The notes under the pieces are model-generated. The model saw only the letters and a list, made by a program, of their open reading frames with translations, had not been told where the DNA came from and searched no databases. Shown piece after piece: positions 19,378 through 22,473 of a stretch of DNA of 64,000 bases; within the stretch, counting starts at the first letter, position 1; the number at the start of each line of letters is the position of its first letter. This DNA is from Escherichia coli (GTDB lineage Bacteria; Pseudomonadota; Gammaproteobacteria; Enterobacterales; Enterobacteriaceae): the NCBI RefSeq assembly GCF_003334385.1, contig NZ_QOWN01000021.1. One strand, written 5' to 3'. Both the position numbers and the translations under genes were made by a program.

Positions 19378-20436
19378 TCATGCGGGGGTCTTTTGACGAG
19401 CTGCCGCGTCCTGGCGGGAGTGCTCAAGCAGGTTCTGCAAATAATGCAGCGTGACTGCAGGGACCAGCGGCGCGATAGCCGTGAGATCGTTTTTCGCCAG
19501 CAGTTGACGTACCCGGGAAGCGGATATCGGCATCTCCTGGTAACGCAGCCGCTCAATTTCAACCAGTTCGATGGGCGGTGCGGAGATAGTCGGCGTTTCC
19601 AGCCAGTAGCGCATATCCTGGTTGTACTGGGCGGTAACGCGACAAAAGGGTTCAGTACCGACAAAGCGGTGAGTTACACCCAGCGCGGGAGCGAGGTACT
19701 GACGGAAAATCTTCAGATCAATTTCGGTGTAACAATGGTTAATGACGCTCTGTTCTTTAATGAAGTAGCAAGGGAACGTAGCGCGGGAGATGATGTATTC
19801 GGAGCCACGATGCACAGTCAGGCGTGGAATATCGGCGGTGCCTTTTAACACCAAATCCAGCCGGTCTTCATAGGGGAAGCGTGAAGAATCTTCTTTGACT
19901 AAAAACAGATGCAACCAGTCGCACTGTGCCGCAGCCTGTTGAATCAGATAACGGTGACCATTCGTAAAGGGATTGGCGTTCATCACAATGCAGCCAATCT
20001 TGTTCCCTGGATGACGAAATTTTTTCAGCGATTCGGCATAGCGTTTCAGTCGCGTGGCGCTGTTTTCCATCAGCACCATCACGCCGGGTACGCTGGTCAG
20101 CGTGGAAAAACCGCACTGGCGGAACAGCGCCTCGTATTCGGTTTTGGTATAAATAAACAGATGCGTGCTGTGCCGCTCATAGGCGAGGTTTATCAATTCA
20201 GTGGCTAATGTCAGCGCCAGTCCTTCACCGCGGACGGATTCACTGATAGCAACGCATTTAATAATATTTCCGGCAATTCCACCGCACGCGATAAGCTTTT
20301 CATCGCGGGTTACGGTAATAAATACTTCGACTGTGGTGTCAACGCTCAAATCATTTTCATGCAGGAATTGGGCGATTTCCGCCATTTTTTTATTTTCTGA
20401 ACGTTTTACGCGGGTGAAAATATCATTGCCGAACAT
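19378..20436 (-). CDS. citC: [Citrate (pro-3S)-lyase] ligase
   Basis: ORF 19378-20523; start most likely at MFGNDIFTRVKRSENKK (352 aa), the longer 381-aa start is also possible. Confidence 0.85.
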   Translation of the reverse strand: MFGNDIFTRVKRSENKKMAEIAQFLHENDLSVDTTVEVFITVTRDEKLIACGGIAGNIIKCVAISESVRGEGLALTLATELINLAYERHSTHLFIYTKTEYEALFRQCGFSTLTSVPGVMVLMENSATRLKRYAESLKKFRHPGNKIGCIVMNANPFTNGHRYLIQQAAAQCDWLHLFLVKEDSSRFPYEDRLDLVLKGTADIPRLTVHRGSEYIISRATFPCYFIKEQSVINHCYTEIDLKIFRQYLAPALGVTHRFVGTEPFCRVTAQYNQDMRYWLETPTISAPPIELVEIERLRYQEMPISASRVRQLLAKNDLTAIAPLVPAVTLHYLQNLLEHSRQDAAARQKTPA

Positions 20437-20814
20437 AATAAATAGTATCCTGAAGGTGCATGTTGTTATCGATTTGCAACGAATGTTGTTCAATGTTGCA
20501 AACTGATAACCTTTTATTTTCACTTGGGAGAAAGGGGGTGATCGAGGTATATCTTTTTCTCCTTTCGCTATACATCCTAAGGAGTATTTCGGCGTGAAAT
20601 TTTGATTTATTTCACATAGAGTTAGTGGTTTTTTATTTATTTAATGATTTTAAGTTTTTTAATTAATGTAATTACGAAATGACTCGCAGGTTTAAGTGAT
20701 TTAATTGATTTAATGAATAAAATTTGCCACGATCATAATTAATATCTATGTATTTTGATTCAACATTTTAATTACATCCGTCAAAGAGGCTCGGGACAAC
20801 CCGCAAGGAAAACA
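20437..20814. promoter_or_regulatory. AT-rich divergent citC/dpiB control region with short direct repeats
   Basis: About 378 bp of very AT-rich DNA with repeated gatttaat/tttatttaatgatt motifs between divergent operons; DpiA (CitB) regulation of citC is established knowledge. Confidence 0.5.
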
Positions 20815-22473
20815 ATGTTGCAGCTTAACGAGAATAAACAGTTTGCATTTTTCCAAAGACTGGCATTTCCGCTGCGTATCTTTTTGCTGATTCTGGTGTT
20901 CTCAATATTTGTCATTGCAGCCCTGGCGCAATATTTTACGGCCAGTTTTGAGGACTATTTAACGCTTCATGTACGCGACATGGCAATGAATCAGGCGAAA
21001 ATTATTGCCTCCAATGACAGTGTCATCTCTGCGGTGAAAACGCGTGACTACAAACGGCTGGCGACCATCGCTAACAAATTACAAAGAGATACCGATTTTG
21101 ATTATGTGGTGATTGGGGACCGGCACTCGATCCGCCTTTACCATCCTAATCCGGAGAAAATTGGTTATCCTATGCAGTTCACCAAACAGGGCGCGCTGGA
21201 GAAAGGGGAGAGCTACTTCATTACCGGGAAAGGGTCAATGGGGATGGCGATGCGCGCCAAAACGCCAATCTTTGATGACGATGGAAAAGTCATCGGCGTG
21301 GTGTCGATTGGCTACCTGGTGAGTAAAATCGATAGCTGGCGGGCTGAGTTTTTATTACCGATGGCAGGTGTGTTTGTCGTGCTGTTAGGGATTCTGATGT
21401 TGCTGTCGTGGTTCCTGGCCGCGCATATCCGTCGGCAGATGATGGGCATGGAGCCAAAGCAAATCGCACGCGTGGTCCGTCAGCAAGAGGCGCTGTTTAG
21501 TTCGGTTTATGAAGGGCTGATTGCGGTGGATCCGCATGGTTACATTACCGCCATCAATCGTAACGCAAGAAAGATGCTGGGGCTGAGTTCCCCCGGACGG
21601 CAATGGTTGGGTAAACCCATTGTTGAAGTGGTCAGGCCCGCCGATTTCTTTACCGAACAGATTGATGAAAAACGTCAGGATGTGGTGGCGAACTTTAACG
21701 GTCTGAGCGTTATTGCCAACCGGGAAGCTATTCGTTCAGGTGATGATTTGCTGGGGGCCATTATCAGCTTTCGTAGTAAAGACGAAATTTCCACCCTCAA
21801 TGCGCAACTGACGCAAATAAAACAATACGTTGAGAGCCTTCGTACATTGCGACACGAGCATCTCAATTGGATGTCGACGCTCAATGGTCTGTTGCAGATG
21901 AAAGAGTATGATCGCGTGCTGGCGATGGTGCAGGGGGAGTCTCAGGCCCAGCAACAGCTTATTGACAGCCTGCGCGAGGCGTTTGCCGATCGCCAGGTGG
22001 CGGGGCTGCTTTTTGGTAAAGTGCAGCGCGCCCGGGAACTGGGGCTAAAAATGATCATTGTCCCCGGTAGCCAGCTTTCGCAACTGCCGCCAGGACTGGA
22101 TAGCACCGAGTTTGCAGCCATTGTGGGCAATTTACTTGATAACGCCTTCGAAGCCAGCCTGCGTAGCGATGAAGGAAACAAGATCGTTGAATTATTCCTC
22201 AGCGATGAAGGCGATGATGTGGTGATTGAAGTCGCCGATCAGGGCTGCGGCGTTCCAGAGTCTCTACGAGACAAAATATTTGAGCAGGGGGTCAGTACGC
22301 GTGCTGACGAGCCCGGTGAACATGGCATTGGGTTGTACTTGATTGCCAGCTACGTAACGCGCTGCGGTGGTGTTATCACTCTCGAAGATAATGATCCCTG
22401 CGGTACCTTATTTTCAATCTATATTCCGAAAGTGAAACCTAATGACAGCTCCATTAACCCTATTGATCGTTGA
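20815..22473 (+). CDS. dpiB: Sensor histidine kinase DpiB (CitA), citrate-sensing
   Basis: Start set at MLQLNENKQFAFFQRL within ORF 20755-22473; two transmembrane segments flanking a periplasmic domain, HATPase motifs (DQGCGVPE, GIGLYL). Confidence 0.9.
   Translation: MLQLNENKQFAFFQRLAFPLRIFLLILVFSIFVIAALAQYFTASFEDYLTLHVRDMAMNQAKIIASNDSVISAVKTRDYKRLATIANKLQRDTDFDYVVIGDRHSIRLYHPNPEKIGYPMQFTKQGALEKGESYFITGKGSMGMAMRAKTPIFDDDGKVIGVVSIGYLVSKIDSWRAEFLLPMAGVFVVLLGILMLLSWFLAAHIRRQMMGMEPKQIARVVRQQEALFSSVYEGLIAVDPHGYITAINRNARKMLGLSSPGRQWLGKPIVEVVRPADFFTEQIDEKRQDVVANFNGLSVIANREAIRSGDDLLGAIISFRSKDEISTLNAQLTQIKQYVESLRTLRHEHLNWMSTLNGLLQMKEYDRVLAMVQGESQAQQQLIDSLREAFADRQVAGLLFGKVQRARELGLKMIIVPGSQLSQLPPGLDSTEFAAIVGNLLDNAFEASLRSDEGNKIVELFLSDEGDDVVIEVADQGCGVPESLRDKIFEQGVSTRADEPGEHGIGLYLIASYVTRCGGVITLEDNDPCGTLFSIYIPKVKPNDSSINPIDR

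Follow-up and report, generated by a model that had tools for sequence, protein, structure and literature searches.

We found that the AT-rich repeats between citC and dpiB in this Escherichia coli DNA are very probably operator sites of the response regulator DpiA (CitB), set in a control region shared by the divergent citCDEFXGT and dpiBA operons. The region, its regulator, its signals (citrate, anoxia and repression by nitrate) and its binding sites are already curated, and the feature is to that extent already known. The repeats exceed what chance would give; they are real and deeply conserved.

The citC–dpiB spacer and its repeats

The window, which is the whole stretch of 64,000 nucleotides that we analysed, contains the citC–dpiB spacer at 20437-20814 (378 bp), bounded by the citC start codon (ATG at 20436, minus strand) and the dpiB start codon (ATG at 20815). 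This spacer is 100% identical to MG1655 NC_000913.3 651857-652234, and window 20300-20950 was matched in 5420 of the 5426 complete E. coli genomes, with citC and dpiB as its two flanking genes in the RefSeq annotation. The citT-G-X-F-E-D-C genes lie on one strand and dpiB-dpiA on the opposite one; dcuC, pagP and cspE come next. CitC (594 bits), DpiB (1226 bits, NF011627) and DpiA (520 bits) all scored above the cut-offs of their NCBIfam equivalogs, and DpiA has the Pfam domains of a receiver (Response_reg) and a DpiA-like HTH_64. These flanking operons and gene identities bear out the preliminary description of the spacer as the divergent control region of the citrate lyase and dpiBA operons; it is the promoter region of a citrate-fermentation operon beside CitA/CitB-type two-component genes. 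The genes and the two repeat arrays are:

19378-20436, minus strand: citC, [citrate (pro-3S)-lyase] ligase, 352 aa, first gene of citCDEFXGT (NCBIfam)
20437-20814, no strand assigned: citC/dpiB divergent intergenic control region (identity to MG1655)
20631-20675, plus strand: array D, five units TTTTAT, TTTAAT, TTTAAG, TTTAAT and TGTAAT at 20631, 20640, 20649, 20658 and 20667 (repeats, conservation)
20689-20717, plus strand: array E, GG followed by three units TTTAAG, TTTAAT and TTTAAT at 20691, 20700 and 20709 (repeats, conservation)
20815-22473, plus strand: dpiB (citA), citrate sensor histidine kinase (NF011627)
22442-23122, plus strand: dpiA (citB), response regulator (NCBIfam, Pfam)

The GC content of the spacer is 0.31 overall, with 0.37 at 20437-20599, 0.245 at 20600-20799 and 0.217 at 20620-20780, and the lowest-GC 200-bp windows of the entire 64 kb start at 20561-20601. 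The preliminary description had called all 378 bp extremely AT-rich; its length was exact, and its statement on composition holds for the dpiB-proximal half but not for 20437-20599. The repeated motifs that it quoted are present as written, with one occurrence each: tttatttaatgatt at 20636-20649, which falls within array D, and gatttaattgatttaatga at 20698-20716, which falls within array E.

Repetition in the segment 20600-20799 was compared with 300 dinucleotide-preserving shuffles of that segment. It holds 25 repeated 7-mers (8.0 ± 3.4 in the shuffles) and 12 repeated 8-mers (2.9 ± 2.2), and 0 of the 300 shuffles reached either count; the best direct repeat was equalled in about 1% of shuffles, and inverted repeats showed no excess over dinucleotide shuffles in this segment. 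A repeat finder reported two pairs at 77% identity each, one of 31 nt (20649 and 20691) and one of 26 nt (20631 and 20700), and Tandem Repeats Finder reported a 9-bp unit in 2.7 copies at 20691-20714.

These repeats resolve into two arrays in which TTTAAK units follow one another exactly every 9 bp, always in the same orientation (plus strand). The pattern TTTAAK-N3-TTTAAK-N3-TTTAAK occurs exactly twice in the 64 kb, at 20640-20663 and 20691-20714, both on the plus strand, where the expected number is 0; with one mismatch allowed, the pattern extends to 20631 and 20649 (reaching 20672). A weight matrix for the triple unit, which was trained on the citC–dpiB locus itself, scored 20.6-31.6 bits at five spacer positions, with the top score of the window (31.6 bits) in array E, and at most 8.6 bits elsewhere in the 64 kb. 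With three to five units per array and a 9-bp period, the arrays are AT-rich tandem direct repeats of the CitB-family operator type.

Conservation, promoter elements and other features of the spacer

A CitC scan of species-representative genomes yielded 80 loci. Among these, divergent citC/dpiB spacers measure 305-556 bp, mostly 320-390 bp, and the divergent pair is found in Escherichia, Citrobacter, Salmonella, Hafnia, Buttiauxella, Atlantibacter, Pluralibacter and Edwardsiella, and also in Leminorella, Limnobaculum, Pragia, Moellerella, Providencia, Pantoea and Erwinia. From Escherichia to Providencia, Erwinia and Edwardsiella, the repeats hardly vary in sequence or in spacing, but the spacer DNA around them is scrambled. 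When 47 unique orthologous spacers were anchored without gaps, the arrays and a TTGA-N6-TCAC element came near 2 bits per position and the flanks near 0; in the alignments and in the information-content profile, the AT-rich core is the best-conserved part of the spacer. The conserved blocks and predicted promoter elements are:

20437-20569, minus strand: predicted citC 5' leader, about 131 nt, with a start at 20566-20569 placed from the -10 position
20503-20523, no strand assigned: Block A, CTGATAACnTTTTnTTTTCA, conserved in Enterobacteriaceae, inside the predicted citC leader
20574-20579, minus strand: predicted citC -10 hexamer TAGGAT (TAnnAT), at a fixed spacing to the dyad; conserved as an ATnnTA hexamer
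20600-20616: Block C, TTTTGAtttattTCACA (conservation)
20601-20616, no strand assigned: CRP/FNR-family site TTTGA-TTTATT-TCACA (CRP core 9/10, FNR core 8/10), centre at 20608.5
Array D region: Block D, cTTAATGGTTTTtAtTTnnTTAATTA (conservation)
Array E region: Block E, GGTTTTTATTTGTTTAATTGATTTAAT (conservation)
20718-20735, no strand assigned: Block F, consensus (G)AATCTGYAACGAT or GAATCTGYAACGAT, K-12 taaaatttgccacgatca, conserved, between array E and the dpiB promoter
20761-20778, plus strand: Block G, AAACA-N7-TTACAT, conserved, holding the candidate dpiB -10

The spacing between these elements is as constrained as their sequence. On the citC strand, the first base of a TAnnAT hexamer lies 29.5 bp from the dyad centre, as for a -41.5 site, in 45 of 48 orthologous loci and also in the window, the other three loci being shifted by 1 bp; the distance from TTGA of the dyad to TAATGG of array D is 40 bp in all anchored orthologous loci but two (39 bp). 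Such fixed spacing, together with the base conservation, points to base-specific recognition by proteins in a fixed three-dimensional arrangement, beyond mere AT-richness. The module (the -10, the dyad, and GGTTTTAATGG..TTAATTA or TTTAATGG..TTAATTA) stands upstream of citC even at loci where dpiB is not a divergent neighbour, as in Ewingella (L056), Vibrio (L073) and the loci L025, L030, L034, L039, L044 and L049. Ewingella has three 35-bp tandem copies of GTGGAGTTTATGGnGTTAATTA, and upstream of the Vibrio citC we found TTTATGGCG-TTTATGAAT-TTTATTC, which makes three 9-bp-phased TTTATK units.

We propose array D (about -64 to -108 relative to the start predicted for citC) as the operator at which phosphorylated DpiA (DpiA~P) serves the citC promoter, and array E (about -94 to -68 relative to the start predicted for dpiB) as the operator from which DpiA~P, or possibly DcuR, acts on the dpiB promoter. 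We infer from the sequence both this assignment of arrays to promoters and a 9-bp grammar in which one unit would serve one monomer. The candidate dpiB -10 is TACATC at 20773-20778 in E. coli and TACATT in most genera, and dpiB transcription is predicted to start near 20785.

The dyad matches the CRP/FNR consensus (TGTGA-N6-TCACA or TTGAT-N4-ATCAA), and its TTGA-N6-TCA core does not vary among the aligned taxa. The left half-site, an invariant TTGA, is of FNR type; the right half-site is CRP-type TCAC in most taxa and TCAA or TCAT in some. A match of this quality is expected 0.25 times in 64 kb, and at least one was seen in 23 of 100 shuffles; a single match is thus not improbable by chance, and the case for the dyad rests on its conservation and geometry. 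Its centre would lie about -41.5 from the predicted citC start, which is class-II geometry. For FNR at citC/dpiB (or U00096.2 6509xx-6514xx), a ChIP peak and a predicted site are both absent from Tables S5-S7 and S9 of PMC3688515, in the wild type and in the hns stpA mutant, and the main text of the CRP SELEX paper does not mention the citC/dpiB locus. Occupancy by FNR or CRP is therefore not seen in these sources, a result of little weight since the cultures had glucose and no citrate. By analogy, the Klebsiella precedent favours CRP as the factor at the -41.5 dyad, and the ChIP data argue against FNR there, at least without citrate.

A scan for consensus promoters and terminators called none in the spacer, and the lack of a strong sigma-70 consensus promoter fits activator dependence. 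We rejected a small conserved ORF behind TAAGGAG at 20578-20584, which in E. coli is just a 3-codon GTG ORF and in Citrobacter and Salmonella has no start codon; the conserved bases are better taken as the minus-strand TAnnAT. The blocks at 20503-20523 (CTGATAACnTTTTnTTTTCA), 20718-20735 (GAATCTGYAACGAT) and 20761-20778 may be sites for NarL (nitrate repression) or DcuR, or parts of the dpiB promoter.

The K-12-type sequence, to which this window belongs, has A at 20647 (TTAATGA), within the most conserved operator unit. The same position is G (TTAATGG) in six sampled diverse E. coli, in five other Escherichia lineages and in nearly all Enterobacterales; this derived G-to-A change might weaken citrate induction in K-12-type strains. 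The K-12-type sequence also has a 1-bp deletion in the G-run near 20533.

Two further features overlap the citC-proximal end of the spacer:

20201-20506, plus strand: nog1, overlapping orphan ORF with a GTG start, 101 aa, antisense to citC (ORF list, Fellner 2015)
20465-20521, plus strand: hairpin with arms 20465-20480 and 20495-20510, then a T-rich run (folding z = -2.4 to -2.6)

Fellner 2015 described nog1 as a 306-bp GTG-initiated antisense ORF, offset by 823 nt from the 3' end of citC in its long annotation. The ORF is intact in our window, where the offset equals that of EDL933 (732757 relative to 731934), an exact match to the Fellner 2015 coordinates. Given the 352-aa citC start, the last 70 nt of nog1 with its stop (20437-20506) lie in 'intergenic' DNA, and nog1 is not fully embedded in citC, unlike in the description based on the older 381-aa annotation. 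We rejected that longer CitC (a 29-codon GTG extension to 20523), whose reading frame differs between genera. The hairpin is likely the nog1 terminator and Escherichia-specific; the consensus terminator scan did not call it. We also rejected a structured RNA or riboswitch: Rfam at E <= 1 gave only a meaningless scaRNA match (15 bits), and RNAalifold found no conserved base pair among 14 genera-level leaders. In the minus-strand RNA, leader positions 20515-20523 have perfect 9-nt complementarity with 20414-20422 (citC codons 5-8), a pairing (folding z about -2.4) that would enclose the RBS and AUG in the E. coli fold and is not supported as conserved across genera.

In other strains IS1 has inserted into the spacer, and about 47 genomes gave split matches. 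In strain Ecol_AZ155, a 768-bp IS1 that duplicated 8 bp of target DNA (20595-20602) parts the citC -10 from all the activator sites. An IS1 end abuts about 20738 in the BL21(DE3) assembly CP081489, and the DNA beyond it is joined to the secE/tufB region (IS1 spacer loci L083 and L082).

Regulation, rival readings and a proposed mechanism

Yamamoto et al. are said to have carried out gSELEX and a footprint of DpiA (CitB) on the E. coli citCp / dpiBp region in 2008. Entries in RegulonDB give 15 CitB/DpiA gSELEX interactions with Yamamoto 2008 as their source (PMID 18997424). DpiA sites in the E. coli citC–dpiB spacer are curated in EcoCyc and were used by Robinson et al. 2025 (PMC12405535), who placed 'DpiA-binding sites' in Citrobacter rodentium by alignment to the EcoCyc MG1655 entry. 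Under anaerobic conditions, and with glucose present, their C. rodentium dpiAB-PcitC biosensor reacts to citrate; nitrate inhibits it strongly. In an E. coli host, construct DTR304, which has the whole spacer but lacks the C. rodentium dpiAB genes, keeps its response by way of the host DpiAB, and in DTR305, where the 'DpiA operator sites' are truncated, citrate switching of the C. rodentium citC promoter is abolished (PMC12405535).

We mapped the DTR305 primer to window 20601-20628. DNA past the equivalent of 20628 is absent from this construct: the -10 and the TTGA-N6-TCAC dyad are still present, and both arrays, D and E, are gone together with blocks F and G. As DTR305 is inactive although it still has the dyad, the dyad by itself does not suffice. 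The preliminary description had staked its reading on repeat deletion altering citC or dpiB expression, and in the orthologue induction was indeed lost, the deletion there taking all DNA beyond 20628, which is more than the repeats.

Table S3 of Myers et al. 2013 (PMC3688515) gives an H-NS ChIP-chip peak under anaerobic conditions at 650481-652224 (U00096.2), which converts to about window 19838-21581 (offset checked via the dcuC and dpiB positions) and covers the spacer; the region is thus H-NS-enriched, as an H-NS-bound silenced region should be. In the same study, O2-dependent expression of citC, D, E, F, X and T was confined to the hns stpA double mutant, where the ratios were about 0.2; set against genes of known aerobic or anaerobic expression in the tables of PMC3688515, this ratio means about five-fold higher anaerobic expression. 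Both kinds of site that had been thought plausible for the repeats thus have published support: response-regulator sites from the EcoCyc DpiA sites and DTR305 (PMC12405535), and nucleoid-protein sites from the H-NS peak (PMC3688515).

Genomic SELEX with the RpoS holoenzyme alone gave a peak in the citC/dpiB spacer (PMC5493296), placed at the dpiB start (U00096.2 651466, window about 20823). A sigma-70 ChIP-seq peak with higher anaerobic occupancy lies about 370 bp inside dpiB (U00096.2 651824, window about 21181). The LysR regulators YbdO (CitR) and YbeF were considered and set aside, as their published effects on expression are indirect only and binding to the spacer is not reported.

It might be objected that the repeats are only low-complexity AT-rich DNA, an H-NS/StpA nucleation or silencing tract or a piece of curved DNA, with no base-by-base reading. 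H-NS prefers AT-rich DNA and needs only AT-richness; the tract is the lowest-GC segment of the 64-kb window, and both the ChIP-chip peak over the spacer and the confinement of the cit O2 response to the hns stpA mutant fit such a reading. AT-richness does not, however, account for conserved G positions (TTAATGG, TTGA and the GG before each array) and exact spacings kept across orders, next to equally AT-rich bases that drift, nor for the single orientation of all repeat units, and in Ewingella the core TTTATGGnGTTAATTA sits within the GC-richer 35-bp tandem repeats. Moreover, removal of the tract in DTR305 abolishes induction instead of de-repressing the promoter, and we regard this explanation as quite improbable. 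Still less credible, and in our judgement highly improbable, is the proposal that the phased T-tracts belong to the promoter itself, as UP elements or as sites for sigma-S or another holoenzyme. The RpoS SELEX peak in the spacer speaks for it, as does the AT-richness of UP elements, but UP elements range from -40 to -60 and the arrays lie beyond this, at -64 to -150 from either predicted start. A consensus sigma-70 promoter was not found in the spacer, and the construct in which the -10 and all DNA as far as about -61 remain shows no activity.

A closer competitor, although we still consider it rather unlikely, is that some or all of the units, especially those of array E, are DcuR sites serving a DcuSR -> citAB cascade. 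In 2012, Scheu et al. reportedly found a DcuR binding site ahead of the citAB operon. The closest paralogue of DpiA is DcuR (DpiA scores 135 bits to the DcuR model), and the dcuB upstream region holds TTAATTAA-like elements. Yet that same upstream region, the classic DcuR target, lacks an array of three 9-bp units, its best score being 1.7 bits against 27-32 bits at cit; the arrays accompany citC even where dpiBA is not adjacent, and the response that depends on host DpiAB needs the array DNA (DTR304 and DTR305). DcuR may nonetheless share part of array E or the TTAATTAA element, and individual units may serve proteins other than DpiA.

If the repeats are DpiA operators, as we prefer, then citrate and anoxia would lead DpiB (CitA) to phosphorylate DpiA, and DpiA~P would oligomerise head-to-tail on the same-orientation arrays D and E. 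From array D it would activate the citC promoter together with a CRP/FNR-family dimer at about -41.5, beside the weak TAGGAT -10; from array E it would activate dpiB, giving positive autoregulation. H-NS would coat the AT-rich tract in the off state, and activation would probably be in part a relief of silencing. This scheme draws on data for the identity of the locus, the repeats and their conservation, the loss of induction when DNA was removed from the C. rodentium promoter, and H-NS occupancy; the -10 elements, the starts, the class-II geometry and the anti-silencing role are its predicted parts.

We think it possible, if somewhat doubtful, that the fine structure (the CitB-box 9-bp grammar, the rigid 40-bp link to the dyad and the derived change at 20647) has not been formally described before. 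Judged from sequence comparison, the CitB-box grammar may be pan-Enterobacterales and would extend upstream of a Vibrio citC, and the dyad may be absent from genome-wide FNR/CRP studies. A map of the 9-bp units, the -41.5 dyad and the -10 is useful for engineering PcitC sensors or dissecting DpiA recognition; the orthologue has already been exploited as a gut biosensor, and in K-12 the most conserved operator unit departs from the consensus at one base.

Comparison with known systems

The citCp / dpiBp region of E. coli K-12, as curated in EcoCyc/RegulonDB, has the same sequence as our spacer, with no difference. The citS-citC2 region of Klebsiella pneumoniae (Meyer, Dimroth & Bott 1997 and 2001) is likewise a divergent citrate-fermentation region; passages of PMC2735749 state that CitB binds A+T-rich targets there and that phospho-CitB and CRP-cAMP activate both divergent promoters. 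The E. coli-type spacer resembles it in combining AT-rich arrays with a CRP/FNR-type site. The K. pneumoniae cluster is, however, paralogous, with citS-oadGAB-citAB opposite citC2, whereas in E. coli dpiBA lies opposite citC; at the Klebsiella locus from our CitC scan (L068), coding sequence lies directly upstream of citC.

Like class II CRP/FNR promoters, the citC promoter has a 16-bp dyad with a TGA-N6-TCA core, centred 29.5 bp upstream of the TAnnAT hexamer, which would place it at about -41.5 from the predicted start. It differs from them in that the dyad is a hybrid (FNR-type left half, CRP-type right half) and does not suffice without the upstream arrays (DTR305).

Another likeness to the arrays is found with a different regulator of the CitB family, MaeR of Lactobacillus casei, which binds three tandem TTATT(A/T)AA repeats in the divergent maeP-maeK spacer; mutation of these repeats impairs phosphorylation-enhanced binding (PMC5457438). 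A form of the MaeR repeat, TTATTTAA, is present at 20637-20644, inside array D and inside the motif at 20636-20649. The two systems differ in regulator, signal (malate for MaeR) and phylum, and where the MaeR repeats are variably spaced, the units described here keep a strict 9-bp period and form two arrays.
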